The notes: generated by a model not told the origin, from the letters alone. 64,000 nucleotides of DNA from an uncultured Acidimicrobiaceae bacterium (GCA_963719125.1 CAVRAT010000007.1:63859-127858); one strand, 5' to 3'. Shown: positions 27,281 to 47,091, counted from the first letter of the stretch. Translations and numbers: made by a program.

Positions 27281-28321
27281 CGGAACACCGACAGTTCAGC
27301 GGGTCCGCAACGTCCCCGCCATTCCGGCGCACTCAGCTGGTCGAATTCCGCGCGTGCGAAGGCGGCTCTTGAGCAAGGCGGCTGCTCGACCCTGTGTCGC
27401 TCCCGCGACGATGGGAGCGATCCGGAAACGTCCTTCACGTGCATCGCTCAGACAAGAAGGGAGGCGCGATAGCGCTCACCTTGCCGACGAAGACGACTGG
27501 CCTATCGGTGGTCGTGGTCGTGGCGCCACGCGGCTCATGTCCACATAGGGAGGATGCCGACAGCGCAGGCAGGCACGCTGCTCGCAGCATGCGGCGGTCG
27601 GGCACGGTCCACAGTGTTACAGCTCCACTTCGAGCTGGGCGCGCGGCACCGTCCTCGGCGTCGCGTCTCAAGGATCAGGTCGCGCGGCCCTACGGAAGTT
27701 CATGTGAGTTGTGTAAGGCGCAACGTTGCCGCCGACGCCGCCACGCGCCGATCAACGGCTCAAGTATCAGGGCAGGGGCGGATCTGGAACGGAGCTTCGC
27801 GCAAGGTTCGCCCGGGGTTGTCGTCTGTCAGGCATCACGCCACTTCTCCATCTGACGACGATCCAGAGGTCCCACCGACGATCGCCCGTGACCCTTCGCC
27901 GCCAGTACGGCTCGACATCTCCCGTCGCGTGGTCGTCGAGCGCCACCATAGTGAGATCACGATCGACTCACATCCGACCGGGACCAGAATGCGTGTGCGC
28001 CTCCTTGAGCGTCGTGCGCCAAGCGCTTACCCAACGCGACCTCGTTCCGACAAGAGCTCTCGAACCGAGTCCGAAAGGGCTGGCTGTGGGTGCAGGGGGA
28101 CTTGGGTAGGGTCGAGTATCGAGCGTTCGTCCCACGGGCGTCACCTTGGGCAAGGCTTGGATCTGCGGTACCGACCAGGGGCGGACGTGAGCGCCAGCCA
28201 GGAAAACAGGAGGACTCGCCCTACCGAAACTCACGCCCACGTGGTAGAACACAGCAGAAATTGGTGCGGTGAGAGCGCGGGTCCCCATCGACGAGGTGGT
28301 GCGCGCGAACAGGGGGGAACA

Positions 28322-28783
28322 ATGGGGTTGGGAAAGCTTCGTCGCGGGTTTCTGATCGCGGCGGTTGCCACCGTGATGGCAGCAGTGCCGTGCGTCGCGT
28401 CAAGTGCGGCGACACGAACCTGGCATTCCGCGGGCAGTTCACTCAAGCTCAGCGGACCGACGTCGAACAAGATGGGCGCGCCCTTCGAATACACGATCTC
28501 GGGCACCGCGGTCAGCCCTGCCGACTACGTGGTCGCCTGGGAACAGTTCTACCCGCAGGGAGGTTGTGCGAGTACCTACGCGGCGGAGAGCACACGCGTC
28601 TTCCTGCCTAACACCTGCGGATTGACGCTGTTCGAGAACCGAAGCGTCTCCCAGAACTACTCGATGGTCGAGCACTTCGGCGCGGACCACCTCGGCAAGC
28701 ACGGTGTCTGCGCCTACCTGATCGACCTCGCGACAGGTGACACCTACGCCTATGCCGGTCAGTTCTGGACGAACCATAAGTGA
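28322..28783 (+). CDS. Secreted hypothetical protein
   Basis: GGGGG RBS; signal peptide MGLGKLRRGFLIAAVATVMAA; Cys-containing mature domain. Confidence 0.7.
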   Translation: MGLGKLRRGFLIAAVATVMAAVPCVASSAATRTWHSAGSSLKLSGPTSNKMGAPFEYTISGTAVSPADYVVAWEQFYPQGGCASTYAAESTRVFLPNTCGLTLFENRSVSQNYSMVEHFGADHLGKHGVCAYLIDLATGDTYAYAGQFWTNHK

Positions 28784-28908: not shown

Positions 28909-28945
28909 CGCATTGGCGAGGTCTCTTGTGCCGCGCCTGCCCTAG
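28909..28945 (+). repeat. Left part of 107-bp repeat copy A (split by IS pair)
   Basis: Joined to 32514-32583 it aligns with 36023-36129 (10 mismatches in 107, manual count). Confidence 0.9.
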
Positions 28946-30645
28946 GAGCGTGGGTCCGAACCGGAAAGCGGTCCTGCCTCGAAGCTCGATGAGGCGAGAT
29001 AGCGAACCCTGACCGGTGGTCGTGGCTTCTCGTTGGTTACGAGGCGTCCGAAGCTGAGCTTGCGAGGGTGCTCCGCACCTCTCATGGTGTCGCGATCGCG
29101 GCCGATCCGCCCGCGTTGGCGAGCTTTCGCAGGTTGTGGCAGACGAGGTGGAGCGTCCATTCGCCCCGTGCTCCATCAAGTCCGCGCAAACGGAGATGAC
29201 CGGCGTGCTGTCGGACCTTCATCTGGCCGAATGCCGGTTCGACGATCGCCTTTCGCCGGGCGTAGTCGGCTCGTCCGGCCTTGGTCCGGAGGCGTCTCGC
29301 CATACGTTGCTTGGCCGTCGTGTTCTTCGGGATGCGCCCTCTCGGTGCGGCCGTGACACGCTCGTCGTGGGTCAGCCGGCCCGTGGCGACGAGTGCGTCG
29401 AGGTCGTCCTCGGCGAGTGCTTCGAGATTGTCCTTCGAGCAGTAACCGGCATCGGCTAACAGCACCTTCGGACGATCTTCGACCCCGGCGCGCACGAGCT
29501 CAACGTCCATCGCCTCGATCATCGGGATCAATTGGTTGACATCGGTGGCTTGTTGGGTAACCACACCGGCGAGGACGACCTGGTTCTTCTCGTCGACGAC
29601 TGCTTGGGCGTTGTAGGCGTAGTGAAATGACCCGTCAGAGGTCTTCATGATGCGCGACTCGGGATCGGTGAAGTTGCGCTGGGCCTTTGCGGCCGGCTTG
29701 GCCTTTTCTCCGGCCTGTTCGGCCGCTTCGGCGATCTCCTCGTCGTTGGTGCGCTCGGCGTTCTTTGCTTGTTTGGCGCCGGCGCGCTCTTTGGCCTCGG
29801 CCTCGATGGCCTTCATTGCCTCACGCATCTTTGCGATGCGCGTCTCGCGTCGGGCGAGCTCGGCAGGTACTTCGTCGCCCCGGCGGTCCGCACCGAAGGC
29901 CTCGTCCTCTTCCCGGTCGATCGCCTCGGCCTCAGCGAGGATCTCGCGCACCTCGGCATCGAGCTGTTCGATCTTCTTTTGCATGTGGTCATAGCTCATG
30001 GCCTTGTGCCTGCTCGCCGAGGCCCGCAGCTTGGTGCCGTCGAGGGCGACCCGTCCGAGCTTTAGGAGCCCGGCTGTTGCGCACAATACGAGAACCTGGG
30101 TGAACAGGTCGTCGAGGGCCCCGAGGTGGCGACGGCGAAAGCGCGCCATCGAGCGGTAGTCCGGTGCGGCGTTCGCCGAAAGGAAGCGGAACGCCACGTC
30201 GGTCACACAGCGCCGCTCGATCTCCCGGGAAGAGGTCACGCCGATCGAGTAGCTGTAGAGCAGGAGCTTCAGCATCATGCGCGGGTCATAGGGAGGTGCC
30301 CCGTCCGCGGTCGCGTAGGAGCCATAGATCACCGACAGGTCGAGCAGACCGTCGACGGCCTCGGAGATGAACCGCGCCTCGTGATCTTCGGGCAGCCAGT
30401 CGTCGAGACTCGGGGGCAGGAGGAAGGACTGGGACGGGTCGTAGTGGCGGAATGTCTTGGCCGTCAAGGCAGAGGGCGTCGTCGCCGTCTTTCGTGGGCC
30501 GACCGCTACCTCGAAGAGCTGGTCGTCAACGGTGCCGTTCTCCATGGCACAAAGTCTTGTCGGTGCTCACGGAAATCGCGAATTTTCACCGCATCACAGG
30601 GATGGGAAGCGCGCGGGGCGGCTCAGGGGGTTCTGACCCACGCAC
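28946..30645 (-). mobile_element. IS1182-family insertion sequence (copy 1)
   Basis: Inverted repeats GAGCGTGGGTCCGAACC / GGTTCTGACCCACGCAC (2 mismatches), flanked by CTAG at 28942-45 and 30646-49. Confidence 0.92.
29082..30545 (-). CDS. IS1182-family transposase
   Basis: LLPPSLDDWLPEDH.ARF, PPYDPRMMLKLLLY, SSREIE, ALDGTKLRASAS, NFTDPESRIMK, ADAGY, Y.RRK.IVEP.FG..K. Confidence 0.95.
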   Translation of the reverse strand: MENGTVDDQLFEVAVGPRKTATTPSALTAKTFRHYDPSQSFLLPPSLDDWLPEDHEARFISEAVDGLLDLSVIYGSYATADGAPPYDPRMMLKLLLYSYSIGVTSSREIERRCVTDVAFRFLSANAAPDYRSMARFRRRHLGALDDLFTQVLVLCATAGLLKLGRVALDGTKLRASASRHKAMSYDHMQKKIEQLDAEVREILAEAEAIDREEDEAFGADRRGDEVPAELARRETRIAKMREAMKAIEAEAKERAGAKQAKNAERTNDEEIAEAAEQAGEKAKPAAKAQRNFTDPESRIMKTSDGSFHYAYNAQAVVDEKNQVVLAGVVTQQATDVNQLIPMIEAMDVELVRAGVEDRPKVLLADAGYCSKDNLEALAEDDLDALVATGRLTHDERVTAAPRGRIPKNTTAKQRMARRLRTKAGRADYARRKAIVEPAFGQMKVRQHAGHLRLRGLDGARGEWTLHLVCHNLRKLANAGGSAAIATP

Positions 30646-30649
30646 CTAG

Positions 30650-32509
30650 GTGGCTGGTGTCTTTCGCGGGCGTAAATGCTCGCGATCCGGTCGCAGCTGA
30701 GAGAGAATTACACATAGGTAATTCTCTACCGGGAGCGATCGATGACCCTGGGCGTGGCTGATAGGCAAGCCAACCTGTTCGACGACGTAGAGCAGTTCTG
30801 CGACAAGGTGCTCGACGAGTCATCGATCTACGCGTTCATGCACCGGGAGCGTGATCGCCTGTTCCCCGACGAGGAGTTCTCCGACCTGTTCGACAACCAG
30901 GGCCGGCGCTCGGTACCTCCGTCGGTGGTGGCGACGGTCATGGTGCTCCAGCGCCTCGAAGGACTCTCAGACCGCGAGGCCGTCGATCGCTACTGCTTCG
31001 ACAACCGCTGGCGCTATGCAGCAGGCGTCGGTGGCTACGACACCGGTGGCTGGACGAGCTTTTCCCACACCGTGCTCGTCGACATGCGCGAACGCCTGCG
31101 ACGATCCGAGCGCCCCGATCGCATCTTTGACGCGGCACTCTATGCGGCCAAAGCTGCGGGGCTCGTCGGCAACCGCCGGGCGCTCGACTCGACGCCGCTT
31201 TATGACGCCGTGGCGACGATGGACACCGTCACTCTTATCCGCTCTGGCATCCGGGCCCTCTTGAAGCTCGCCAGCCGCAAGCTGCGGGCCGAGCTCGGGG
31301 CGTTGCTCACGAGCGGCGACGACTACGCGAGCTCCTCCAAGCCGCAGATCGACTGGGAAGATGCCGAAGCTCGCGAAGCGCTCATCGACAGCCGCGCCAA
31401 GGACGCCTACGCATGCCTCGGCCTTCTCAATGGTCAAAAGCTCGACCCTGTCGTCACCGAAGCCGCCAAGCTGCTCGCCACGGTGACCGGCCAGGACCTC
31501 GTAGAAGGAGACGACGGCGTCTTTCGCGTCGCCCGCAAAGTCGCCAAAGACCGGGTGATCTCGACGGTCGACCCCGAGGCCCGCCACGGGCACAAGACCA
31601 AGACCAGAAGCTTCGACGGCTACAAGGGACATGTGGCTGTCGACCCCGACTCCGAGATCATCACCGCCACGGTCGTGACGCCGGGCAACGCCGGGGACAC
31701 GAGTGTCGCAGAGGACCTCATCTCCGAGCTTCTCGTCGGTGATGACACCGGCCATGACGACCTCGACGAGCACGCGGCCACGGCCGATGTCGACGAGAAC
31801 GACGAAGATGTCACCACTGTCTACGGCGACAACGCCTATGGAACCGGGGCATTCCAGGAACGTCTCGACGGCGCTGGCATCGACTCGCGCTGTAAGACTC
31901 AGCAACCCACCGCACCCGGCGGGCTGTTCACCAAGGACTGCTTCGTCATCGACCTCCACGAAAGCGCCGTCACCTGCCCGGCCGGTGTGACCGTCGAGAT
32001 CCGCCGCCATGGCATGGCCTACTTCGGTGACGCCTGTACCAACTGCCCACTGCGGACCAAGTGCACCACCGCTTCAGGCGGGCGCACCGTCGGGATCAGC
32101 CCCTACGAAGAAGCTCTCGCCCGCGCCCGCAAGCACCAGGCCGAACAAGCCTGGCGCGACGACTATCGCGCCACCCGTCCCAAGGTCGAACGCAAGCTCG
32201 CTCATCTCGTCTACCGCAAGCACGGAGGAAGGCGCGCCCGCATGCGCGGCACCGCCAAGGTCGACGCCGACTTCCGGCTACTGGCCAGTGCCGGGAACCT
32301 CGCTCGCCTCGCGCGCCTTGGACTCGGATGGACCGCTGCCGGGTGGGCGATCGAGTGAGTCGGCCGTCCAGCGCGAGCAAACACCAACGGCTGCCCAACC
32401 CCATGTGGCTTCTGGGCTCGCCTCGCACGGGCCACCCGCGGGTATCCGGCATACGGGCCGCGATGACAGCCACACCATCAACAACAATCCCTCAATTCAC
32501 ACCAGCCTC
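30650..32509 (+). mobile_element. IS1182-family insertion sequence (copy 2, different lineage)
   Basis: Ends GTGGCTGGTGT / ACACCAGCCTC, flanked by CTAG at 30646-49 and 32510-13. Confidence 0.9.
30742..32358 (+). CDS. IS1182-family transposase
   Basis: GRRSVPP, EGLSDREA, LDSTPLYDAVATMDTVT, DRVISTVDPEARHGHK, YGDNAYG, CPAG...CTNCPLRTKCT, RPKVERK. Confidence 0.93.
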   Translation: MTLGVADRQANLFDDVEQFCDKVLDESSIYAFMHRERDRLFPDEEFSDLFDNQGRRSVPPSVVATVMVLQRLEGLSDREAVDRYCFDNRWRYAAGVGGYDTGGWTSFSHTVLVDMRERLRRSERPDRIFDAALYAAKAAGLVGNRRALDSTPLYDAVATMDTVTLIRSGIRALLKLASRKLRAELGALLTSGDDYASSSKPQIDWEDAEAREALIDSRAKDAYACLGLLNGQKLDPVVTEAAKLLATVTGQDLVEGDDGVFRVARKVAKDRVISTVDPEARHGHKTKTRSFDGYKGHVAVDPDSEIITATVVTPGNAGDTSVAEDLISELLVGDDTGHDDLDEHAATADVDENDEDVTTVYGDNAYGTGAFQERLDGAGIDSRCKTQQPTAPGGLFTKDCFVIDLHESAVTCPAGVTVEIRRHGMAYFGDACTNCPLRTKCTTASGGRTVGISPYEEALARARKHQAEQAWRDDYRATRPKVERKLAHLVYRKHGGRRARMRGTAKVDADFRLLASAGNLARLARLGLGWTAAGWAIE

Positions 32510-32513
32510 CTAG

Positions 32514-32583
32514 ACACGCAGTAATACTCATGGTTCCCTATTTGAGCGACGCGCTATGTGCAAACCGGCGGAGGGCACAACGA
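32514..32583 (+). repeat. Right part of 107-bp repeat copy A
   Basis: Matches 36060-36129. Confidence 0.9.
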
Positions 32584-32772
32584 TGCCGAGTCGGGCGCGG
32601 CGACCTGGGGCCCGAGGCCAGTGCGGAGCCGTCATTCTGTGTTGCCGTCGGCCTGGGAGGGCTGCCGGTGAGCGGGTGAAACGGATCGGTCTGGGCGCCG
32701 CCCTGCCACGCAATACCGACAGCGAGTTCAGGAGTCTCTCATCAGCCGCGTGCGCTGGAGCCGGTCCGTTGG

Positions 32773-34047
32773 GTGGAGACTTGGAGGGTGCGTCGAAGTC
32801 TGAGCCGAGACACACGCCTACTTGTTGCGGGACAGGCTGTGCGCGGTCTTGGTTACGGCTTCACCGCGGTGGTGCTGGGGTCCTTACTGGCGGCCAAAGG
32901 AGTCAGCCCGGTGCGGGCTGGTGTGCTGCTGGCAACGCTGATCGGGGGAAGCGCTCTCAGTTCACTGGCGGTCGGGGCATACGGTGACCGATTTGGCCGA
33001 CGGCGCTCCTACGGATTGTTCTTCGTTGGCGTGGGACTGGCAGGTGCGATCGTGGCGACGAACCCTCCGATGTGGCTGTTGTTCGTCGTGGCGGTGACCG
33101 GAACCCTGTCCACCGATGTGGTGGACAACGGGGCGGCGACGACATTGGAACAGGTCATGCTCGCGACCGAAGACGCTGGAACGGGCCGCGTGTACGGGTG
33201 GTACAACGCGGCAGGTGCGGCCTTCGGGGCCTTGGGGGCTCTGGGTGCTGCGCTGGTCGGAATGACCCGAGCAAGTGCTGGCGTGCACGCGTGGCTGTTC
33301 GCGGCGTTGGTACCAGTCGGGTTGGCGGGAGCAATGTGCGCGTTCGGACTCTCGGCGGCGGTCGAGGCTTCGGGTCAAGGATCGACCACTAACGCGGGCA
33401 CGCGGCGCGAGCGGACAAGGCTCGGACCATCACGCCGGGTGGTGCGTCGGCTGGCGGCACTGTTCTCGGTGGATGCGGCGGGCGGCGGCCTTGTGACAAC
33501 GGGGTTCTTGTCTTACTACCTGGCCGAGCGCTACGGGGCGTCCTTGGCCACCCTGGGGTGGTTGTTCTTCGCCGTCTCGGCCATGCAGGCGATGTCGGTG
33601 CTAGTCGCGCCGTTGATCGCCCGCAGGATCGGGCTGGTGCCAACCATGGTAGGTACCCACCTACCGAGCAACGTGTTGTTGGCGTCGATGGCGTTCGCAC
33701 CCACATTCCCGGTGGCGGTCGTCTTGTTGCTGGCCCGCACGACGTTGTCGCAGATGGACGTGCCTACCCGCCAAGCCTTGGTCATGACGGTGACCACACC
33801 CCCCGAGCGCACGGCAGCGGCGGCGACAACGAACGCCGCCCGCTACTCGGTCCGCCCATTTGCGCCGCTGCTGGGCGGTATCTTGCAGCAGGTCAGCCTG
33901 GGAACGCCGCTGCTTGTCGCGGGGGTGGTCAAGGGCGGCTATGACCTGGCGCTGTGGCGATGGGCGCGTCATCTGCCGATGATGGGAGCGGATGGCTCGA
34001 CGAGCACGTCCCGCTCCGCAGAACTAGACGAAGGGGAGCAGCTATGA
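32773..34047 (+). CDS. MFS transporter (type often paired with chromate-resistance genes)
   Basis: DRFGRRR motif; THLPSNVLL...LSQMDVPTRQ; about 12 TM segments; stop overlaps the next start (ATGA). Confidence 0.9.
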   Translation: METWRVRRSLSRDTRLLVAGQAVRGLGYGFTAVVLGSLLAAKGVSPVRAGVLLATLIGGSALSSLAVGAYGDRFGRRRSYGLFFVGVGLAGAIVATNPPMWLLFVVAVTGTLSTDVVDNGAATTLEQVMLATEDAGTGRVYGWYNAAGAAFGALGALGAALVGMTRASAGVHAWLFAALVPVGLAGAMCAFGLSAAVEASGQGSTTNAGTRRERTRLGPSRRVVRRLAALFSVDAAGGGLVTTGFLSYYLAERYGASLATLGWLFFAVSAMQAMSVLVAPLIARRIGLVPTMVGTHLPSNVLLASMAFAPTFPVAVVLLLARTTLSQMDVPTRQALVMTVTTPPERTAAAATTNAARYSVRPFAPLLGGILQQVSLGTPLLVAGVVKGGYDLALWRWARHLPMMGADGSTSTSRSAELDEGEQL

Positions 34048-34502
34048 AATGGATCACCCGAGAGCGGCCTAAGACCGACCGGATCGCCTGCCCGTGGCTC
34101 ATCCGCCGGTTCATCGACCCCGAGGCTGAGTTCATCTACGTTCCGAAGGAGCAGGTGCTTGCCGTGGCGGAACGGACCGGTGGGCACTCGTTTGACGCAC
34201 CTGGCGCCGAATACACCCACACGAAGGCGAGTGATGGTGGCGAGCGATGCACCTTCGAGACCCTAATCGAGGCATATGGTCTCGGAAGAAACCCAGCCCT
34301 GGCGCGTCTGGCGAAGATTGTCCACGCGGCTGATGTCAGCACCGACGTGGACACCGACCCTGCTGGGCGGGGCCTACTGGCCATCGGCGTTGGCGGCTTG
34401 GATGTTGAAGCCGATGATCATCGTCTCTTGGATAGGGCAACCTTCGTCTACGACGCGCTGTACGCATGGTGTGAGCGGGAGACTCAAGAACCACCGCAGT
34501 GA
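34044..34502 (+). CDS. Chromate resistance protein, ChrB C-terminal domain (ChrF-like)
   Basis: MKWITRERPKTDRIACPWLIRRFIDPEAEF, CTFE, IVHAAD, YDALYAW. Confidence 0.92.
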   Translation: MKWITRERPKTDRIACPWLIRRFIDPEAEFIYVPKEQVLAVAERTGGHSFDAPGAEYTHTKASDGGERCTFETLIEAYGLGRNPALARLAKIVHAADVSTDVDTDPAGRGLLAIGVGGLDVEADDHRLLDRATFVYDALYAWCERETQEPPQ

Positions 34503-34567
34503 GCCGCTATCACGAGACAGAACGCCCGCACATGCAGAATGTCCGCTTATGGCCTCGGAGGTGGCGG

Positions 34568-35812
34568 GTGGAGCCACGAGACCCCGAAGAGACGGGGAGC
34601 GCTGAGAACCCGTTAGCCGTCGTCGAAGTCCTGCGGGCGCGGCGACCCCTTGTCGCAACCGGCGCGCTGGCAGTTCTCGGGGGCTCGGCGTTCTGTTTCG
34701 TCACGGGGGAGACCCTGCCCGTGGGGTTGCTACCGATCATCTCCTCCAGCCTGCACACGTCGCTCTCAGCTACTGGCTTGTTGGTGACCGTCTATGCCCT
34801 GGTAGTGGTGGTGGTCTCGGCGCCTCTCACACACCTGACCCGCCACGTCCCTCGCCGCTACTTGTTGTCGGGCCTCTTGGGCGTCTTTGGGGTCGCCACC
34901 CTGGGCGCGGCAGCCGCGCCTGGCTACTGGTGGCTGATGGTCACACGCGTGGTGACCGCCCTCTCCCAGGCGGTGTTCTGGTCGATCGCGCCCGTAACAG
35001 CAGCGGGGCTCTTCCCACCGGAGAAGCGGGGACGGGCTATCGCAGGGGTGCTCGCCGGCGGGCCGCTTGCCATTCTCATCGGGGTGCCCGCCGGCACCTG
35101 GATAGGCCAGCAAGCCGGCTGGCGCGTGCCTTTCGTAGTCCTCTCCGGCCTTGGCTTGGCGGGCGTCGCCGCGGTGGCTCTACTCGTTCCCACCACGAAG
35201 CCGAGCGAGAGCCACGCTGCCGCGGGCACCGCTCCCAACGCCCGGCGCTACTGGATGCTCGTGGCCACAACGGTCCTGGCCGCCACTGGGACCTTCACCG
35301 CCTACACCTACGTCAGCGCCTTCCTCACCAAGGTGAGCGGGCTCCCTGCGAGCGATGTCCCGGCGGTGCTGTTGCTGGGCGGGCTCGGCTCCTTGCTCGG
35401 AGTAGCTTGCACCGCACTGCTCTTGAGCCGCCGGCCGCGGGCGGCAGCGGTTGGCCCGGTCGGCCTCTTGGTCGTCTCGCTGCTCGGGTTGTACTTCTTT
35501 GGGACCACAGGCGCTGCGGCGGCCGGCCTGCAGGCGCTCGAGAGCTTTGGCGTGGCCAGCATCGCAATATCTATGCAGACACGCGTCCTCGTGGTGGCGC
35601 CCCACAGCACCGACATCGCTACGGCTTGGTTCTCGGCTTCGTACAACGCCGGCATCGCCACCGGGCCGGTTATCGGTGGGCTCGTGCTATCTGGCCTCGG
35701 GTTGCGTAGCACGCCCCTAGTCGGCGGGTTGCTTGCGGTCCTGGCCCTGGCGGTGGTCCTCAGCGAACCCCTCGCTGGCAGGGGTGCACTTGAGGGTGGC
35801 AGAACGACCTGA
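34568..35812 (+). CDS. MFS efflux transporter (DHA1/AraJ-SotB-like)
   Basis: GETLPVGLLP, GLLVTVYA, ALSQAVFWS, GVPAGTWIGQ..GWR. GGAGG RBS before GTG 34568; alternative start 34499. Confidence 0.9.
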   Translation: MEPRDPEETGSAENPLAVVEVLRARRPLVATGALAVLGGSAFCFVTGETLPVGLLPIISSSLHTSLSATGLLVTVYALVVVVVSAPLTHLTRHVPRRYLLSGLLGVFGVATLGAAAAPGYWWLMVTRVVTALSQAVFWSIAPVTAAGLFPPEKRGRAIAGVLAGGPLAILIGVPAGTWIGQQAGWRVPFVVLSGLGLAGVAAVALLVPTTKPSESHAAAGTAPNARRYWMLVATTVLAATGTFTAYTYVSAFLTKVSGLPASDVPAVLLLGGLGSLLGVACTALLLSRRPRAAAVGPVGLLVVSLLGLYFFGTTGAAAAGLQALESFGVASIAISMQTRVLVVAPHSTDIATAWFSASYNAGIATGPVIGGLVLSGLGLRSTPLVGGLLAVLALAVVLSEPLAGRGALEGGRTT

Positions 35813-36022
35813 TCTGGAGCTGCTCGGCCTCGACCACCTCAACGCGTCTGACGATACCGATCGACTGATACGGGCGCTGCGGGTTGCCCATCAGTTCCAC
35901 CGCTCGTGCGTTCCGTAGTGTTCAACGAAGTGGCTGACTCTCCCGCGACCTACTGCCGAGTCGATAGCACCTCTCAGCCCAACTGCTCAGGTGCCCGCCC
36001 TCAGGTCCCATTACTGCACAGT

Positions 36023-36200
36023 CGCGTTGGCGAGGTCCCTTGTGCCGCGCCTGCCCTAGACACGCAGCAGTATCCACGGTTCCCTATTTGAACGACGCGC
36101 TATGTGCAAACCGGCGGAGCGCATAACGAATATTTGCGCGCGCTTTCAGCGCCCGACTGCACGACTGACCGACGTTCTGTTCTCGCGATCCGACCCCATT
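36023..36200 (+). repeat. Repeat copy B (left 107 bp shared with A; right ~70 bp shared with 38903-38970)
   Basis: Manual alignments. Contains a single uninterrupted CTAG and CTATGTGC-N10-AGCGCATAA-CGAATA-TTTGCGC. Confidence 0.85.
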
Positions 36201-36229
36201 CATGCGCAAGGTGCGTGTTTGGCAGCATT

Positions 36230-37279
36230 TCAGGCCGCGCGGCGGCGGACCAGCCAGACGGTTGCAGCAATGAGAAGCAGGGAGAGTGCAAGCAGCCAGC
36301 CACCTTCGATGAACTGGAACGGCCAGAAGCGGCTGCCCGGCTGGTAGCTCGTCCAGTTTTTGTAGCCGTGCTGAGCGAGAAACCCGACCGGGTCGAGGAA
36401 CGTCTGGAAGCTGTTTGGCCCAATCTTGATTGCCTTGGGATGGTACTGGTGCAGGACCTGGCTGATCGTGGACTGGCTGACCGGTTTCCCGCTCTTCCCG
36501 GTGTACCACTGGCTCAACACCCACGCGGAACCAGGCAGGTTTTTGGGGTTGCTGGTCACCAGCGGGGCCAGGTAGTGCTCGCGCAGGTACACCGAGGCGG
36601 TGAGGGCGAGCCCGGCGTAGACGGCCAGCGCAGCGGCCAGCGCGGGGACGACCCGGCGGATGAGCACACCGACCAGGGCGCCGATCGCGAAGGCGGCCAG
36701 CGTCCAGGCGGCAAACGCGACTCCACGCAGGTCGAACACCGTGGGAGCGAACGAGGTCTGCTGACCCTCGGCGAGGAAGGGGCCAAAGTACCAGGAGAAA
36801 AGTACGCTGAACGCCCCAGCCGCGGCGGCTACCGCAACAGCGAGCGGGACGAGCTTGGCGGCCGCCCAGCGCCAGCGGCCGAAGCCCTGGCTCCAGGCGT
36901 AGCGGAAGGTGCCGGTCTCGAACTCTCGCGCCAGCACCGGCGCCCCGGCGAAGACCCCGATCAGCGCGGGCACCGCCTGCAGCAGCGCCGCGGTGGCCTC
37001 CGCCCGCGTCCAGTAGGTGCTCGTGAAGTCGCCGATCGCATTCCCACAGGCAATTGAGCTTGCCGGGCGGCAGACGGTCACGGCTGCGTAGGCGTGGTGG
37101 ATCTGTTGGCCCGTGATCAGCAAGTACACCGCCAGCGCGCCGAGCAGCACGACCACACCGGCCAGCGCGACCCGGTGCTGACGCCAGGTGACCCAGGCCA
37201 TCCGCCGCCACGGCAGTGGCCGCAAGCTTGCGTCCTCCTCCGGACGGGCGGGCACGGTCAGCGTGGTCAACGCGGTCAT
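36230..37279 (-). CDS. ABC transporter permease subunit
   Basis: WVTWRQHR, GVFAGAPVLAREFETGTFR..WSQG, YQPGSRFWPFQFIE. Confidence 0.9.
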   Translation of the reverse strand: MTALTTLTVPARPEEDASLRPLPWRRMAWVTWRQHRVALAGVVVLLGALAVYLLITGQQIHHAYAAVTVCRPASSIACGNAIGDFTSTYWTRAEATAALLQAVPALIGVFAGAPVLAREFETGTFRYAWSQGFGRWRWAAAKLVPLAVAVAAAAGAFSVLFSWYFGPFLAEGQQTSFAPTVFDLRGVAFAAWTLAAFAIGALVGVLIRRVVPALAAALAVYAGLALTASVYLREHYLAPLVTSNPKNLPGSAWVLSQWYTGKSGKPVSQSTISQVLHQYHPKAIKIGPNSFQTFLDPVGFLAQHGYKNWTSYQPGSRFWPFQFIEGGWLLALSLLLIAATVWLVRRRAA

Positions 37280-38193
37280 TTCGTCACCTCCGACGGTTCA
37301 GCGTCCCGGCCGCGGGTTGGGCCGGGCAGTGCCGCGGCGCTGGGCTCGCGCAAGTAGGCCAGGGCCAGCTCTTCGAGCGTGAGCGAGTGCGCCTCCCATC
37401 CCGATGGCACCGGATCGGAGGTGCCGTCGAAGCGCACGAGCAGATGCGCCTGCGAAGCGGCACGGCTCGCGTGCACGACGTTCCACTGCTGCGCACACCA
37501 TTCGGACTCTGAAGCTGGGCCGGTAAGCACGCGGTGGCGCGCGAGGAGATCGTCGACCTCGCCCACCACCTGGATGCTGCCGCGCGAGACGAGTACGAGA
37601 TAGTCGGCAACTCGCTCGAGCTCGGCGAGGACGTGTGACGACAGCACGACCGAGACACCGTCGTCCGCGACCGCCATCATCACCGTCGCCATGAAGTCGT
37701 GCCGGGCAATCGGATCAAGCATTGCCATCGGCTCGTCGAGCACGAGGAGCTGCGGCCGGCGCGCCAGCGCGAGGGTCAACGCGAGCTGGGCCTGCTGGCC
37801 GCCTGACATCTTCCCCGCCTTCTGTTGCAAGGCGATGCCGAGCTCGCCGAGGCGATGCTCCGCGTATCCCTGGTCGAAGCGGCGGTTGAGGTTACGGGTC
37901 AGGTGGAGCAGGTCGGCAGCCGAGAGGTTCTTGTACAGCGGCGTGTCCTGAGCCACGAACGCGATTCCGTCGAGCGCGGGCAGAGAACCGGCGCGGCGCC
38001 CGCCGAGCACTGTTAGCTCACCGGTCGTCGGTGTGGCAAGCCCAACGGCGAGGTTCAGCAAGGTCGTCTTCCCGGCGCCGTTCGGACCGACGAGCGCGAC
38101 CACGTGCCCGTCGGGGATCGCCAACGTGCAGTCGTGCAGCGCTTTCGTCGAGCCGTAGGACTTTCCGAGGGCGCGGGTCTCGATGACGTTCAT
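37276..38193 (-). CDS. ABC transporter ATP-binding protein
   Basis: GPNGAGKTT, MSGGQ, LVLDEP, SSH. Confidence 0.96.
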   Translation of the reverse strand: MNVIETRALGKSYGSTKALHDCTLAIPDGHVVALVGPNGAGKTTLLNLAVGLATPTTGELTVLGGRRAGSLPALDGIAFVAQDTPLYKNLSAADLLHLTRNLNRRFDQGYAEHRLGELGIALQQKAGKMSGGQQAQLALTLALARRPQLLVLDEPMAMLDPIARHDFMATVMMAVADDGVSVVLSSHVLAELERVADYLVLVSRGSIQVVGEVDDLLARHRVLTGPASESEWCAQQWNVVHASRAASQAHLLVRFDGTSDPVPSGWEAHSLTLEELALAYLREPSAAALPGPTRGRDAEPSEVTK

Positions 38194-38681
38194 GCCACCC
38201 CCTCTTCCTCGTGTTGCGCCGCGCCGCGCCGGTCGGCAGTGCCCCCGCGACGCTCACGAAAATCCCGCAGCACGTTCGCGACGAGCGCCGCGATCCCGTC
38301 CTCGTCGAGCCCTGCCGCGTCGGCGGCCGCCACCCAGGAGACGAGGGAGCGGCGGAGCTCGGTGAGCTCGGGCAGCGCCACCTGGCCGAGCGTCGCCACG
38401 ATGAACGTGCCCTGGCCCGGTCGCCCGACCGCGAGGCCCTTCGTCTCCAGCTCCCGGTAGGCCTTCAGCACCGTGTTCGGGTTGATCGCCAGCTCCGCGA
38501 CCACGTCTCGGACCTTCGGGAGCTGATCGCCGGGCGCGAGGTAGTCGAGGCGGAGCGCGTGCTCGACCTGATGGACGAGCTGCAAGTAGGTCGGCACGCC
38601 CGAAGCGAGATCGAGGCGGAACTCGATCGGCGAGGCTCGCCGGGGAGCCACCACCTCGCTGTCGTCTTTATCTACTGTCAT
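38190..38681 (-). CDS. GntR family regulator (YtrA type)
   Basis: PTYLQL, PGDQLP.VR, INPNTVLKAYRELE, GQGTF. Confidence 0.93.
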   Translation of the reverse strand: MTVDKDDSEVVAPRRASPIEFRLDLASGVPTYLQLVHQVEHALRLDYLAPGDQLPKVRDVVAELAINPNTVLKAYRELETKGLAVGRPGQGTFIVATLGQVALPELTELRRSLVSWVAAADAAGLDEDGIAALVANVLRDFRERRGGTADRRGAAQHEEEGVA

Positions 38682-38807
38682 GCGACAATACTGCAACGGC
38701 ACGAGTTGCCGTCAACCGCGTCTCGGCGATCGGGATGCGACTAGCCGTGCTCGCGTCGCTCCACCATCCCAAGGCCGTGGGTTCGCGCTGCGTCGAGCTT
38801 GGTCGCG

Positions 38808-38970
38808 CGCCGATCGAATCATCTGTGCGCCGCGCGAGGCGCGTCCTAAGTCACGTCGCGGGCACGTATCGAGGCGGTTCTCGAGCCCCAGAGCGTGAGC
38901 GCCGAATATTTCCGCCCGCTCTCGACGCCCGGAGTGCGACCTGATCGGCGTCCTGTCGCGACGCGACCCG
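38808..38970 (+). repeat. Repeat copy C (left 65 bp shared with D; right part shared with B)
   Basis: 38808-38872 vs 39829-39893: 54/65 identical. 38903-38970 vs 36127-36197: roughly 70-75% with small gaps. Confidence 0.8.
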
Positions 38971-39190
38971 CCCAATGGTGCAGGCTGTGAGCGTCCTTTC
39001 TCTCGAGCCGGGAGGCGGACCGCTTCCGGCGTGCCTAATAGGTGTCTAAATCGAGTCTGTGCCTGCTCAACAGACCAGACAGATCACAGCCGGTAGCGCG
39101 TTTCTGAGACTCGCTCGACGCTATCCACCGCGCCGAAAGACGATCCTCCTAGGCTCGGCGAGCCGACCAGACCGCCCGCTGAGGAACCGG

Positions 39191-39733
39191 ATGAACGAAA
39201 AGCAGTTGATCAAAACAAGATCGCAGGAGTTCCGCGATTTCTTCGATCGGGTCAAGATTGCCACCCGGCTGTCGTCCAGGCTCAGCGAATACTGCTTGGA
39301 CGACCAGGATGCGATTCGAGAAGCCTTCGAGGAGCTGATCGGCAAGCCGGTTGGCGACTCGTTCAACCTCATCCCACCCTTCTACGCGGATTACGGGCTG
39401 AACATCACAGTCGGTCGGGCCGTCTTCATCGGTTACGAGTGCGCGTTTACGGGCCACGCGGCCATCGACATCGCCGACCAGGTGATGATCGCCCACAAGG
39501 TCAACCTGGTCACAGCGGGTCATCCTGTCGAACCGGCCAAACGACGCGAGTACATCACCGCGGAACCGATCACGATCGATACGAATGTGTGGATCGGAGC
39601 TGCGGCAACCGTCTTGCCCGGCGTGCACATCGGCGCAGACGCCGTCGTCGCGGCTGGTGCCGTGGTGACACACGACGTCCCTCCGGCAACGCTCGTCGCT
39701 GGTGTGCCTGCGAAGGTCATCAGGAACCTATAG
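39191..39733 (+). CDS. Sugar O-acetyltransferase (hexapeptide repeat, Maa/LacA-like)
   Basis: PPFYADYGLNI, VWIGAAATVLPGVHIG, VVAAGAVVTHDVP...VAGVPAKVI. Confidence 0.92.
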   Translation: MNEKQLIKTRSQEFRDFFDRVKIATRLSSRLSEYCLDDQDAIREAFEELIGKPVGDSFNLIPPFYADYGLNITVGRAVFIGYECAFTGHAAIDIADQVMIAHKVNLVTAGHPVEPAKRREYITAEPITIDTNVWIGAAATVLPGVHIGADAVVAAGAVVTHDVPPATLVAGVPAKVIRNL

Positions 39734-39828
39734 CGCGGGGCGGCGCTACCGAGCCTCTTCCCTACGTTTTAGCCCTCCCTGCCGAAGAGCCTCGAGCTTG
39801 CGAGCCGCGCCGCGGCCGACCTCCGGGC

Positions 39829-39893
39829 CGCCGATCGAATCATCTGTACGCCGCGCAACGTGCGTTTACAGTCACGTCGAGGGCGCGTAACGA
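39829..39893 (+). repeat. Repeat copy D
   Basis: 83% identical to C-left; ends GGGCGCGTAA-CGA. Confidence 0.85.
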
Positions 39894-40190
39894 CGGCTAC
39901 GCCTGCTGCCTTGAAGGCCGCTCAGGCGACATTAATTTAGTGAACTCTCGTGTTACCGACTTCCCTACTGCCGCACCGGGTGGCCCCATGTCGGCCCCCC
40001 AGGGGGTCCAACCGTCGAAGGCGAGATCGCTGACCCGGGCGCGGTCGCGCTTGCGCTGAGTCTGGCCGTTCTGTGCGTTCCAGGACCGGCGTGAGGAGAT
40101 GCCAGGGTGTGGTGGAAGTGGAAGTGCCCCAGTAGGCTGCCTACCGGGCCAAGCAGAACAAGGTTCCAGTGACTCTTTCTGGGGGGTGTG

Positions 40191-40583
40191 ATGGCCGAGT
40201 TTCCCGCGCTTACTCATGTTGCCGTGACGGTCACCGATCTTGGTCGGAGCCGACGCTGGTATCAGCGATTGTTCGGCATGGATCCGGTGCTCGACGAGGA
40301 CACCGGCCCATTCCACCACGTCGTGTGGCTACTCGGCGGCACGCTGTTCGGCATTCACCAACATGCCCGCCCGTCGAGTGCAGAGTCCTCCGATGAGTTG
40401 CGGCCAGGGCTTGACCACGTCGCGTTCGGTTGCGCGAATCGGGCCGAACTGGTGCAGTGGGAAACACAGCTGAACTCACTTGGCATCGCGCACGGCGGTG
40501 TCGTCGACGCGCCCTATGGTTCGGGCTTGTCGTTCAGGGACCCAGACAACATCGCCTTGGAGTTCTTCGCACCACCCGGATAG
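40191..40583 (+). CDS. VOC/glyoxalase family protein
   Basis: HVAVTVTDL.RS..WY, GLDHVAF, FRDPDNIALEF. Confidence 0.93.
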   Translation: MAEFPALTHVAVTVTDLGRSRRWYQRLFGMDPVLDEDTGPFHHVVWLLGGTLFGIHQHARPSSAESSDELRPGLDHVAFGCANRAELVQWETQLNSLGIAHGGVVDAPYGSGLSFRDPDNIALEFFAPPG

Positions 40584-40897
40584 ACCCCATCCCGGTTCAG
40601 AAGGCCTGGCAAAGCCGTCGTGCTCTCTCGGCGCCGGGCGAGGCGGCAGAAGGACCTTCCGACAAGTGGCTCGGAGCACCCGGACCAACGACGCACCGAT
40701 ATCGACCGATCTCGACGGAGCAGGCACGCCGAACGACGTCTACAGGCGTGGTTGGCAGACCTGGCGGCGTTATGGGCGTGCTTGCGTGTCTACGGCCGGG
40801 CCTTGAGTCGAACCCGACCTGGGTCTTGGCGCCTGCAGCCCGCGAGGTGGCCCGAAGTTCCCGTTCGACTCCAAACCATCGGCTCTAGCCTGACGGC

Positions 40898-41427
40898 GTG
40901 AAGGGCGAGGCGGCTACTGATGCCGTTCGAGTAGCGGCGCCTGCGGAGTTCGACGTCCTACGCGAGATCGAGAAGACGACGGACGGCCTTTCGCCGAGGT
41001 CGGTATGGGTCCATTTGCCGTCTTGGACGAGGAAGACCGCCTAGCCCAAGCCGCGGTCGTGTTCGTCTCGGGGGAGCCACCGGTTGGGTTCGCTTGTGTC
41101 GAGATCGTCGATGGTCTCGCCCACATCTGGCAGCTCTCGGTACTCCAATCAAAAGGTCGGCAGGGCCTCGGGCGCGCTTTGGTCAAAGTCGTTTGCGACT
41201 GGGCGCCGCTGAATCGTCTACCAGCCGTGACTTTGACTACCTTCCGAGAGGTGCCGTGGAACGCACCGTTCTACGCCCGGCTCGGCTTTCGCGTCGTCGA
41301 AGCTCCGCCGCCAGGTCTACAGGCCATTCGCGATCACGAGCGAGACATGGGTGATGACGCTCTGGGCCCTCGAGTCGCCATGCGTATCGACCTGCGAGAA
41401 GGTGCAGCCCACAAACAGCGGCCCTGA
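40898..41427 (+). pseudogene. GNAT N-acetyltransferase with 1-bp deletion at ~40989-40991
   Basis: GTG 40898 (TAGCCT 6 nt upstream) gives ..VRVAAPAEFDVLREIE..DGL; adding one T restores FAEVGMGPF. Downstream QLSV...GRQGLGRAL and TLTTFREVPWNAPFYARLGF. Confidence 0.8.
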
Positions 41428-41474
41428 TTCTCATCTGCGTGTGCCGGCGCCTATTCGTTTCCCAGCCTCCGACC

Positions 41475-41574
41475 CGCCGGATCGATCTGCGTGCGCCGCG
41501 AACAAGACTTTCGCAGCGGTCCCCTAGCGAGCACGGAGCGACGGGGCGGATTCGCCGACTCCAGAACCCCGAGC
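41475..41574 (+). repeat. Degenerate repeat copy E
   Basis: CGCCGGATCGATC..GTGCGCCGCG...GAGCACGGAG-CGACGG-GGCGGATTC..CCAGA resembles C/D; weaker match. Confidence 0.45.
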
Positions 41575-41614: not shown

Positions 41615-42709
41615 GTGTTCATGTGCTGTTCACCACGAGGTCTGAGCCCGTTCACCAGCGCTGGTTACGCTCCCGACCCACTGCCGCCGCAGGGCGGGGC
41701 AACTCTGGTGCACGACACGCCCAAGGGTAAGGAGACGATCTCCAACCCCGACGACATCACCTCGCTCGACTCCGACATCTTCGTTGGTTTCCAAAACGGC
41801 GTCGGTCCGCAGGACCAGGCGAGCACGAAGGGTAATCGGGACAGCACCATTGTGGAGTTCAATCTCAGTGGCCACGCCGTTGATCAGTGGGACGTCGTCG
41901 GCAAGTGTGACGGTCTGACCGCGGCTGCAGCGACGGGCTTGCTCATCGCCACCGTCAACGAGGACGCCCACTCAAGCGTGTACGTCATCGACCCGAGGAC
42001 CGGCGTGATGCCGGTGCATTACCGCTACAACGAATCTCTTCCGAGCAAGGGTGGCACAGACGCCATCTCGTTCTACCGAGGGATGACCCTCATCAGCGCC
42101 TCTGCTCCTGGCAATACCGGGCTGGCAGCACCTCAATCCACCTACCCGGCCGTCTACCGGGTCGTCTTCAACGCAGGGGCCCGAGTCGCCACCGTTCATG
42201 CGCTCTTCTTCGACGAAGCCACGGCGACGATCGCCAACACGAACAGCGCAAACTACGGCAAGGTCGAGCGGTTGGCCCTCACCGACCCGGACTCGAACGA
42301 GGACGTGCCAGCTTTCGCCACTCGGTTCGCAGGTGACTTCATGCTGACCAGCCAAGGTGACAAAGAGCAAATCTTCGTTCACGACGCTGACGGACCCCAT
42401 CAGACTCTCTCGGTCTTGAAGCTGTCCGACTCGGTGGACGACACCGCCTGGGCCTCCGATAGCTCCGGCGCCATCTACACCGCCGACAACTCCGACGACA
42501 CAATCTACAAGATCACCGGCCCGTTCCGCCGCGGGGCGGTGTTCGTGGCTGACACCCCCTGTGACGCCAACGACGCCCCGAACACATGCCCAGGGCCGGG
42601 GTTCCCCGCCAACTACATCGGCCGACTGAACCCGATGACCGGTACGATCACAAAGGTCAACCTGACCGGACCAGCGCCTGCAGCTCAGGGCATGTACTTC
42701 CGGCCCTAG
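41615..42709 (+). CDS. Hypothetical beta-propeller-like protein, probably lacking its native 5' end
   Basis: Long ORF with coding-like codon use from ~41690 (NPDDIT..FQNGVGP..STIVEF..CDGLT..VNED..LTDPDSN); no signal peptide and a poor start. Confidence 0.6.
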   Translation: MFMCCSPRGLSPFTSAGYAPDPLPPQGGATLVHDTPKGKETISNPDDITSLDSDIFVGFQNGVGPQDQASTKGNRDSTIVEFNLSGHAVDQWDVVGKCDGLTAAAATGLLIATVNEDAHSSVYVIDPRTGVMPVHYRYNESLPSKGGTDAISFYRGMTLISASAPGNTGLAAPQSTYPAVYRVVFNAGARVATVHALFFDEATATIANTNSANYGKVERLALTDPDSNEDVPAFATRFAGDFMLTSQGDKEQIFVHDADGPHQTLSVLKLSDSVDDTAWASDSSGAIYTADNSDDTIYKITGPFRRGAVFVADTPCDANDAPNTCPGPGFPANYIGRLNPMTGTITKVNLTGPAPAAQGMYFRP

Positions 42710-42889: not shown

Positions 42890-43231
42890 TCAGCTGATGA
42901 TTGTCGCCCGTGCTGCGCGGCTCGCCTGGATCGTCGCAAAGCCAAGCCAGCCAAGCAGCCAAACAGTGGCGATACGGGACAAGACAGTCCGCGCCTTGGG
43001 ACCGGGACTAGATACGGCAAGGGCGATCGCGACGAGGACGGGACCGCACCCCGCGATTGTCATCGCCGAAGCAGCGGCCTGATGCCCGGCGTCCCAGGCT
43101 TCATCGCTGCGCAGGGTCGACGGGATGCGGATGCCCGCAAATATGTTCCTCGGCAGGCGCCCCGTCGCCGCCATACGTCCGAGCACGACTACGATCCCGC
43201 CGCTCAATCCAAAACTGATCGCCTTGGACAC
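42890..43231 (-). CDS. SdpI family immunity-like membrane protein
   Basis: GRLPRNIFAGIRIPSTLRSDEAWDAGH motif with three TM segments. Start uncertain. Confidence 0.85.
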   Translation of the reverse strand: MSKAISFGLSGGIVVVLGRMAATGRLPRNIFAGIRIPSTLRSDEAWDAGHQAAASAMTIAGCGPVLVAIALAVSSPGPKARTVLSRIATVWLLGWLGFATIQASRAARATIIS

Positions 43232-43792
43232 GCGTGCCAGACCACACAGGTCCTGATCGTCCGCATCACCAGAACCGTTGTCCTGGCTCGTGAGTCCACT
43301 TCCCCATTGCACTGCTTCTCGCTCGATCATGGTGACCTCCGTCACCCCGATAATGCCACCCAACAGCCTGAGACGATTCGCGTGAAACCGCCGGGACGGT
43401 TTCTTCGGCCGTTCCGGATGGATGTGGCGGTCGACGACCCGATCGTGACGAGGGCGAGCGTCGCGGTTGAGAGTCAGTCATCCAGGGCGCCGGTACAGTT
43501 GCTGTGGAGCGGACGAAATGCGCATCAACGGGAACAATCACGCCGCGGGCCCCTGCGAGAGGGCTCCGGTTCTTTCGAGTTGCCTCCCTTGACGCGTCAC
43601 TACGCCGCCCGCCGGACCCGTCGGTTCGCGGCGCGTCGTGCCCGTCGCGTCGCCTGCCGGACAGCCCGCGTCGGGGGTGCCGGATGCTCCGGGTGCTTGA
43701 TGTACCTGATGGTCCCCGCTCATTGTGCTGCTGTCACTGTGGGCTTCCGTGCTCCGTTGCAAGCGCGAGGTGCGCCGTTGACCGGCTGCCTG

Positions 43793-46778: not shown

Positions 46779-46888
46779 CCGACCTTGATGAAGTCGCTTC
46801 GCAAAGCGCTAGCCCCAGTGTCTGACGAGCAGCCGGCCCGCGGTCTCCCCGACGCCTCAGTCGTCGCGGAGCTGGAGTGGATTGAGTG
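46779..46888 (+). pseudogene. Remnant of a second vapB/vapC junction
   Basis: About 84% identical to 47326-47436 by manual alignment; abuts tRNA fragment 1. Confidence 0.85.
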
Positions 46889-46889
46889 G

Positions 46890-46930
46890 CCAACGGGATT
46901 CGAACCCGTGTCTCCACCTTGAGAAGGTGG
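46890..46930 (-). other. tRNA-Glu(CTC) fragment 1 (att-like; anticodon arm and T arm, acceptor end missing)
   Basis: Reverse complement CCACC-TTCTCAA-GGTGG-AGAC-ACGGG-TTCGAAT-CCCGT-TGG; no D arm or 5' acceptor strand. Confidence 0.85.
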
Positions 46931-47091
46931 GTGGATCACCGCTTAGCAACGCTGAACTGGGCTTTCGGTGCACTCTCAGGCCATTCTGCGGTCGGTGTGG
47001 GGACCTGCGGCGGAAGGTCGGTTGGCGAAATGTTGGCGGGACAGACCTCAAGCAGCGGCACCGGAGAGACCATTCCCGAAACAAGCTTCCC

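Follow-up and report, generated by a model that had tools for sequence, protein, structure and literature searches.

Integron cassettes are mostly single promoterless open reading frames (ORFs) held in one orientation, and their attC sites are imperfect palindromes, bounded by an inverse core and a core (RYYYAAC ... GTTRRRY), and fold as single strands. Staphylococcal cassette chromosome (SCC) islands, including SCCmec, pseudo-SCC and the arginine catabolic mobile element (ACME) arrays at orfX/rlmH, use Ccr serine recombinases at one fixed locus, and cis-mobilizable elements (CIMEs), for example in the ICESt1/ICESt3 family, are decay products of one family of integrative and conjugative elements (ICEs) at one tRNA or gene site. 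The pdif sites are 28-bp XerC-spacer-XerD sites with TTATG-type arms and alternating orientation, and a recombinase-in-trio (RIT) element consists of three adjacent tyrosine recombinase genes between long inverted repeats. Here we describe an array of resistance and detoxification gene modules in an uncultured Acidimicrobiaceae bacterium, a member of a phylum in which integrons are reportedly not found. The array lies in a window of 64,000 nucleotides (GCA_963719125.1, CAVRAT010000007.1:63859-127858), to which bare coordinates and those prefixed with w refer, and its modules are separated by conserved blocks that meet at a short core. Because such module ends recur across the genus, they suggest that genes are collected and exchanged here in a manner not described before. 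The best reading, to which we give an even chance, is that cassettes lacking a recombinase have been integrated into arrays by site-specific recombination.

Under the best-supported model, these arrays would work much as SCC composite islands or CIME accretion do, with no more than a loose resemblance to integrons. As in SCC islands, resistance-bearing cassettes stand in tandem, many of them without a recombinase of their own; the chromosomal site is at or just past the 3' end of a conserved gene, and a short direct copy of the site is present at every junction. Unlike in SCC islands, the arms are conserved blocks of 70-100 nt and of several types, several landing sites are implied, and the cassettes are much smaller (1-5 kb). 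The accretion of CIMEs and of integrative and mobilizable elements (IMEs) likewise involves integrase-less elements trapped in tandem between att sites, with mobilization presumed to occur in trans, but here many different small cargos have the same arm pair across the genus. Modules bounded by pdif sites, or integrative mobile elements exploiting XerC/XerD (IMEX), are similar in lying between short sites, in lacking a recombinase and in relying, presumably here as well, on a host-encoded tyrosine recombinase; they differ in that the sites described here are all direct, have no TTATG-type arm and keep long conserved flanking arms. Integron cassettes and clusters of attC sites lacking integron-integrases (CALINs; Cury et al. 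2016, PMC4889954) share with our locus small recombinase-less cassettes, recombination sites between them and an accessory or resistance cargo. In contrast to integrons, IntI is absent, the sites are conserved in sequence and not in fold, their halves are not complementary, the crossover is inferred to fall in the middle of the site, and a cassette may comprise as many as four genes, which have regulators of their own and lie in either orientation. Among titles and abstracts of the literature, no description of such cassettes was found.

Results

Conserved blocks bound gene modules across the genus

The initial annotation had reported intergenic repeat copies A to E between gene modules, and had read them as mosaics of left (L) and right (R) pieces: A as L1, B as L1 plus R1, C as L2 plus a linker plus R1, and D as L2. 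A repeat search of w27000-43500 confirms the repeats (28909-28945 versus 36023-36059, 95% identity over 37 nt; 32509-32583 versus 36055-36129, 89% over 75 nt; 38808-38872 versus 39829-39893, 83% over 65 nt; 36127-36155 versus 38903-38931, 83% over 29 nt), and blastn and nhmmer searches of the whole assembly (3.92 Mb in 34 contigs, 85% complete) uphold the mosaic reading. What had been taken for one repeat family, however, comprises distinct left arms (L1, L2, E and Z) and right arms (R1/R2 and R3) that meet at a core. Below, genomes of congeners are numbered with G, contigs with C (standing alone, a contig of the same assembly as the window) and collected loci with L and three digits.

Across the genus, the blocks are non-coding, unstructured and low in copy number. 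R1 is present in 12 of 20 congeneric genomes, in one of four genomes from other genera of the family and in none of 16 from other families of the order, and L2 is present in 11 of the 20 congeners. Over all sequences collected, nhmmer returns 84 hits for R1 (48 distinct) and 45 for L2 (25 distinct). Scanning with an exact R1 pattern finds 33 loci in metagenome contigs and 11 in species-representative genomes, the latter titled as Acidimicrobiaceae or Acidimicrobiales metagenome-assembled genomes (MAGs) plus one "Thermoleophilia" and one "Planctomycetia" MAG; the pattern has no match in IMG/VR, and a distant blastn search of PLSDB with w38760-39060 gives none. The Thermoleophilia-titled contig (L087) is 92% identical over 5.9 kb to G005:C33, both cassettes included, and the Planctomycetia-titled contig (L090) matches R1 weakly; these titles point to errors in binning or else to transfer.

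The arrangement of the two blocks is uniform. Where R1 comes first and L2 follows within 7 kb, all 13 distinct units (23 raw; 1,012-4,785 bp long) have both blocks on one strand, and no pair within this distance is on opposite strands. Neither a recombinase nor a transposase gene is found inside the 11 units scanned, a set to which L086 and L087 do not belong. Two units of the window stand in tandem (w36127-38872 and w38892-39893), and L2 is immediately followed by R1 in three distinct arrays. One cassette points to recent transfer between species: that of G016:C7 shares 95% identity with G006:C37 over 3.5 kb and 96% with G018:C43 and C92, contigs that end inside R1 and inside L2, whereas a gene flanking it shows only 76% identity between the same genomes.

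Left and right arms meet at a shared core

L blocks end and R blocks begin in the core GCGCRTAACG. The end of L2 reads GGGCGCGTAACG and that of L1 GAGCGCATAACG, while about two-thirds of the R1 copies are preceded by GCGC-N-(G/T)-A-(A/T), then CGCCGAATATTTGCGC. The core that had been noticed at the L ends is real, and independent copies of R1 begin with it as well. We aligned 20 junctions, with left arms of type L1, L2, Z (short, L2-like), B (chromosomal) or unique, and right arms of type R1, R3 or unique. In 18 of the 20, CGCRT-AACG-CCGA is in register at the arm switch, a direct core copy at element boundaries such as SCC- and CIME-like systems have, and the combinations L1.R3, L1.R1, L2.Y, Z.R3, B.R1 and B.B' all share it. 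Lists of the sequences flanking the blocks agree with this alignment. Window copies A (L1.R3) and B (L1.R1) are alike through AACG and different beyond. The junction cores are all direct, and GCGC...GCGC is the sole symmetry in the 24-nt site.

An inverted CTATGTGC-like motif had also been proposed to precede the core; it gives no signal, and there is no excess single-strand folding. The likeness to dif/pdif or RIT sites fares no better, as all sites are direct, no TTATG-type arm is present and no convincing inverted arms surround a 6-bp spacer. No RIT element is found in the window, nor a canonical dif-like site in the assembly at its 85% completeness. Elsewhere in the assembly, C17:89952 carries a near-palindrome, CCGCATAA-GTCCGC-TTATGC, the only exact ATAA-N6-TTATG match with symmetric flanks and possibly an unusual dif-like site, and clusters of two or three recombinase homologues on C21 (99235-102567), C26 and C29 may be RIT-like elements.

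Relatives carry an unoccupied chromosomal site

R1 in G016:C7 and G005:C33 has on its left a stretch of ~145 nt of which G001, G002, G007, G008, G011 and G017 hold one copy each. In G011 it comprises the last ~60 nt of a 509-aa ORF (helicase-like, with a weak UvrD_C_2 match) and ~90 nt after its stop codon, so that an unoccupied attB-like sequence lies just past the 3' end of a conserved gene in relatives, again as in SCC- and CIME-like systems. In these six congeners the stretch ends ...GTGAGCGC(A/G)T(A/T)(A/T)CGCCGA(A/T)TA...GCGC, that is, in the core plus ~20 nt of R1; past these the flanks diverge and there is no cassette. The same sequence in G005 and G016 leads into a full R1 and a cassette. 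The comparison of the six empty sites with G005 and G016 has the signature expected of attB and attL. The empty-site allele of G001 has an R3-type arm, and a permissive Rfam scan of three empty-site loci gave no match. In G011:C12 (L127 1801-3000), a virginiamycin B lyase family gene, another gene of resistance type, lies ~180 nt past the unoccupied core.

The window array is a variable island

The modules are accreted in a variable island of ~14 kb (w28893-42836), flanked on one side by a conserved gene of 409 codons' product length (409 aa; 27554-28783) and on the other by one of the SdpI family (42890-43363). We compared 20 kb with the genus by blast, followed by pairwise blasts. G008:C1 is without the island, with w28892 joined to w42837 and 17 nt between, as is G003:C6, in which w28776 is joined to w42835 with 93 nt between. 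At the island position G019:C54 has 0.9 kb of other DNA; G018:C67 retains the 5' part of L1 after the orthologous flanking gene and has a different island, with 6.7 kb of other DNA between w28793 and w40024, followed by 82% identity over w40024-41410. Given this presence and absence in congeners, all of w28893-42836 is one island that starts with L1.

The initial annotation had made its proposal depend on synteny breakpoints mapping to the repeats; in relatives they fall on block edges. The homology with G005 extends from the permease stop codon through L2, the linker and R1 and ends at w38982. That with G015:C50 runs from w38897, the R1 start, through R2 and the acetyltransferase gene to w39827, one base short of L2, which is absent in G015:C50 at the end of the acetyltransferase module.

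Repeat copies in the window

All blocks described here are on the plus strand. Copy A had been recorded as two repeat pieces, and the sequence bears this out, but the pieces are one L1 unit split by two tandem insertion sequence (IS) elements that had been overlooked. The 5' part (28909-28945), the one retained in G018:C67, is followed by a first IS1182-family element (28946-30645, minus strand) with 22-nt terminal inverted repeats, CTAG flanks and a transposase gene at 29082-30545 (minus, 487 aa; NCBIfam IS1182, 345.8 bits against a cut-off of 270; Pfam DDE_Tnp_1/DUF772). A second element of the family (30650-32509, plus) shares a CTAG with the first and encodes a 538-aa transposase at 30742-32358 (300 bits against the same cut-off). 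Elsewhere in the assembly, the first has four copies that are 99.8-100% identical and one at 88%, and the second has four full copies at 99.7-99.9% besides an interrupted one. In copy A the two elements alternate with three CTAGs, at 28942-28945, 30646-30649 and 32510-32513; copy B reads ...GCCTGCCCTAGACACGCAG... and has just one, at 36056-36059. The 3' part of L1 copy A (32514-32583) ends in the core GGGCACAACG at 32573-32582, in register with the other junctions, and is followed by an R3-type right arm, TGCCGAGTCGGGCGCGGCGACC... (32584-32620). Such an arm also follows the core in G015:C76 (L075), at C18:153260 (L010 1261-1274) and at the G001 empty site.

In copy B, an uninterrupted L1 (36023-36129) ends in the core GCGCATAACG at 36119-36128, to which a degenerate R1 (36127-36200; nhmmer E value, 2.6e-9) is fused. 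This R1 abuts the stop codon of a permease gene; G005 and G016 have a CHAP gene at its position that is missing in the window. Junction C opens with L2 (38760-38872), of which 38808-38872 is the conserved block and the stretch from ~38760 the long form; its core GCACGTATCG lies at 38862-38871. A linker (38873-38891), which is the same in G005:C33, L087 and L111, separates this core from the core-like AGCGTGAGCG at the 5' end of R1 (38892-38982; E value, 4.6e-24). By alignment, an R2 block (38978-39055) follows R1 in a subset of copies, and it is 83.5% identical to a block beside a permease 3' end in G010:C4. Copy D is an L2 (39827-39893) ending in the core GCGCGTAACG at 39883-39892.

Copy E (41465-41545) is a diverged L2-type arm on a GNAT gene. 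It had been described as L2 plus linker, an assignment that is weak: its 85% identical paralogue on C12 fits the L2 profile (15 bits; E value, 5e-6), but the window copy, at 1.2 bits, scores below the best of 500 shuffles (4.4 bits). The duplication covers w41186-41544, which takes in the 3' part of the GNAT gene and is 86% identical to C12:6860-7220. Scores and duplication together mark E as an L2-type arm, distantly related, that is tied to its gene. That it might be the upstream region of paralogous genes was considered and rejected, as the downstream ORFs are unrelated.

The search of the genome with each arm that had been proposed finds further copies of R1 at C18:200517-200592, C18:156596-156666 and C11:242383-242452, of L2 at C17:3673-3761 and a relative of E at C12:7102-7220.

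Cargo of the modules

The gene order given for the stretches between the copies is corroborated by Pfam. Module 1 (32839-35812, plus) encodes a major facilitator superfamily (MFS) transporter, a ChrB C-terminal domain protein and a second MFS transporter, which is Cmx/CmrA-like (NCBIfam 206.8 bits, below the cut-off of 400). Module 2 (36230-38702, minus) comprises an ABC-2 permease (36230-37279), an ABC ATPase (37276-38193) and a GntR-family regulator (38190-38702); its ortholog in G005 is likewise bounded by R1 and L2. Module 3 (39191-39733, plus) is a hexapeptide-repeat O-acetyltransferase gene, maltose/galactoside acetyltransferase-like at 118 NCBIfam bits, below the cut-off of 314, and module 4 (40188-41427, plus) has a glyoxalase/vicinal oxygen chelate (VOC) gene (40188-40583) and the GNAT acetyltransferase gene (41005-41427). 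The last gene of the island is a 364-aa ORF (41615-42709, plus) with a good coding score and no Pfam or NCBIfam match. In agreement with the claim that the array holds no recombinase, no Phage_integrase match is found among the window ORFs scanned.

Genus-wide, the cargo includes GntR-ATPase-ABC2 permease operons of three kinds, of which one also has a CHAP-domain gene, as well as PadR-ATPase-FtsX, hexapeptide acetyltransferase and CocE/NonD hydrolase genes. G005:C33 carries a rifamycin-inactivating phosphotransferase (NCBIfam 1510 bits against a cut-off of 999). Cargo is found in either orientation relative to the blocks, with up to four genes and their own regulators. Upstream of the GntR genes there is a conserved operator-like sequence, TTTATCTAACGTCATAAGACAAGG in one operon type and the palindrome ATCTAGATTCCTAGAT in another (window 38704-38740, L059 7690-7750, L099 960-1010), outside the L and R blocks.

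Beyond the island, ~43-60 kb looks like a second variable region, with a PIN-domain gene, an IS21 pair (53660-55752) and an ISAzo13-type transposase gene (57139-58359) around a tRNA-Glu(CTC) gene (46884-46950, minus). A SAM riboswitch (50103-50190, minus; Rfam RF00162, 54.3 bits) lies directly upstream of a 60-aa ORF (49916-50098, minus), and hydrogenase maturation genes (HypC-like, AIR-synthase-related/HypE-like, HypF and HypD) occupy 4954-11092.

Discussion

A candidate mechanism and what weighs against it

In the mechanism that we propose, L1, L2 and E on one side and R1 (with R2) and R3 on the other would be the left and right halves of a bipartite attachment site, L-core-R, with the attachment core GCGCRTAACG followed by CCGA-N6-GCGC. 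An excised cassette of 1-5 kb, without a recombinase of its own, would carry one such site with L2, core and R1 contiguous. Conservative site-specific recombination at the core would insert it into a like chromosomal site or into the site of a resident cassette, leaving core-R1 at its left end and L-core at its right end, and repeated integrations would build the array at w28.9-42.8 kb. The recombinase would act in trans and is probably a tyrosine recombinase. In favor of this mechanism are the uniform polarity and varied cargo of the units, the core at the arm switches, the unoccupied chromosomal sites, the presence or absence of the island, the near-identity of one cassette across species, the tyrosine recombinase and relaxase genes beside some blocks, and the lack of coding, RNA-like or hairpin character in the blocks. 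Of the initial proposal that modules accumulate by site-specific recombination, the array of modules at repeats stands and the comparison with dif, pdif and RIT sites does not; the recombination itself we infer. More tentatively, at clearly less than an even chance, we suggest a cassette system belonging to the genus, unrelated in its sites to integrons and SCC and playing a role like theirs, in which L-core-R sites, matching chromosomal sites, stacking of cassettes, passage between species and a cargo of antibiotic-inactivating and efflux genes, such as the rifamycin phosphotransferase, come together.

Several observations count against integration at the core. An excised circle, a pair of empty and filled sites differing by a single cassette, and a pairing of recombinase with site were not observed. 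The public runs consist of short contigs; of 21 such runs (best share 0.38), four were compared, their joint sides are at most 35 nt in conserved ABC motifs, and they are neutral on circles. Alone, the 14-nt core pattern is not over-represented in the window (6 matches with at most 2 mismatches, 7.2 expected), so that its significance resides in its position at block boundaries. A unit's two end cores resemble each other without being identical, R1 and L2 have inner edges no less sharp than their outer edges, and contigs L111 and L121 have L2 before R1, 1.7 and 4.6 kb apart. G005 and G016 keep only the last ~60 nt of the helicase-like gene before the site, and these copies are therefore not at the native locus. 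The same cargo stands without L2 in G015:C50, and the same operon without L2 in G006:C37 and G010:C2 (each with an R1 3' stub) and in G014:C30 (with an R2-like block), which implies that blocks can be gained and lost independently of cargo. The integrases that neighbour the blocks are not one family, most pairs being 24-41% identical or without a match, and the only close pair is that of L094 and L113 (93% over 122 aa). Moreover, related genomes are not independent samples.

Alternative explanations

The main rival explanation is that the blocks are decayed att relics of larger integrative elements at hot spots, with immobile modules reshuffled by RecA-dependent exchange between the 70-100-nt repeats and by deletions. 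We consider it unlikely. In its favor, the surroundings of the blocks include integrases of diverse kinds, a relaxase, group II introns and IS elements. Copies beside tyrosine recombinase genes, which the initial annotation had suggested seeking, exist elsewhere in this genome, in congeners and in metagenome contigs: such genes lie at most 1.5 kb from a junction at C18b (frameshifted), C11, G002:C14, G016:C7, L094, L099 and L113 (a fragment). The metagenome contig L099 (1187-3519), which breaks off upstream, has two adjacent ones that reach their stop codon 12 nt ahead of the R1 core; G010:C4 carries an integrase fragment in place of the L2.R1 junction of G005. One R1 is preceded at 66 nt by the end of a TrwC relaxase gene, another (L065) stands beside an IS110-family transposase gene, and group II introns (Rfam group-II-D1D4-6, with a reverse transcriptase ORF) lie 0.2-0.9 kb to the left of R1 in two unrelated contigs (L056 8329-10150, G002:C14, and L093 5100-6802).

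Relics would also account for the truncated R1 stubs and for the absence of L2 beside otherwise identical cargo. Exchange within or at repeats would give breakpoints like those at the right edge of R1 (G005) and at its left edge (G015:C50), and an orphan L2 on C17 (L007 3655-4167) lies 167 nt past the 3' end of an 85-nt tRNA gene, with an SRP RNA gene and dnaX next. The same orphan is 1.4 kb from that tRNA gene in G010:C17. That L2 might itself be part of the SRP RNA or the tRNA was rejected: on C17 both are at least 167 nt beyond L2, with no overlap. No tRNA gene lies beside the integrases in 8 loci, and no second core copy that could serve as attR is found within 4 kb beyond L2 in G016:C7. 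Between the L2 end and the 3' end of the intact integrase gene at that locus, three tandem 10-bp repeats, GACCGTTTTG (L059 8156-8191), are possible arm-type binding sites. What relics leave unexplained is the uniform polarity: all 13 units run from R1 to L2, are compact and have no recombinase genes. Arms switch at the 10-nt core and not elsewhere along their length, and the recently shared cassette ends inside R1 and L2 in G018, both of which argue for integration of cassettes at the core.

A second alternative, which we find improbable, sees in the blocks conserved cis-acting elements (terminators, insulators, promoters or operators) that are carried along with accessory operons and play no part in mobility. 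In its favor, R1 mostly lies past the 3' end of a convergent gene, ~50 positions are nearly invariant in 20 R1 copies, and the unoccupied version is kept downstream of a chromosomal gene. However, R1 is on the 5' side of some cargo and on the 3' side of other cargo, and the promoter and operator of the GntR genes are outside the blocks. A structured RNA was considered and rejected: alifold reveals no covariation in 4 or in 20 R1 copies, with -7 kcal/mol and a covariation term of ~0 for the larger set. Single-strand DNA folds of R1, L2, L1 and junction C on both strands have z scores of -0.65 to +1.83 against shuffles. A gathering-threshold Rfam scan of the window returns only the SAM riboswitch and the tRNA, and a permissive scan of w35800-41700 returns nothing.

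The blocks might also have been decayed pieces of a coding gene or of a miniature inverted-repeat transposable element (MITE), an outcome that the initial annotation had named as fatal to its own proposal. The coding relic is rejected, as column entropy has no clear 3-periodicity, and R1 and L2 share no similarity, inverted or direct, beyond ~10 nt. The best local score of R1 against the reverse complement of L2 is 16, equalled by 66 of 300 shuffles, and thus provides neither terminal inverted repeats nor attC-like complementarity; target-site duplications are absent from the flanks of 11 units. In the absence of Rfam matches, folding, periodicity, inverted repeats and duplications, decayed genes, RNAs, MITEs, attC hairpins and IS200/IS605 ends are unsupported. 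The claim that the system is not an integron is accordingly sustained, with no complementary halves and no folding in the sites and no IntI among the window ORFs scanned.

Very improbable, finally, is that the blocks are ends of a non-autonomous transposon family (MITE, mobile insertion cassette, IS200/IS605- or IS91-like) moved by a transposase, for although they are discrete ends around cargo, low in copy number, in genomes rich in IS elements and in one case (L065) beside the IS110-family gene, they have no terminal inverted repeats or target-site duplications, no subterminal hairpins of the kind that hairpin-dependent ends need (no excess folding of R1, L2 or L1 and no conserved pairing in 20 R1 copies), and no transposase in the units scanned.

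Implications

Even if the blocks were att relics, they would be useful markers that delimit accessory modules, and they cause assembly breaks in these MAGs. If the cassettes are mobile, as integration at the core would have it, they would constitute a third cassette-collecting platform beside integrons and SCC-type islands, and the first such platform in a phylum said to be without integrons. Such a platform would narrow the site to 25-30 bp and the candidate recombinases to a small number, and it would explain the exchange of resistance and detoxification genes, among them the rifamycin phosphotransferase, exporters and acetyltransferases, in peat and soil Acidimicrobiaceae.

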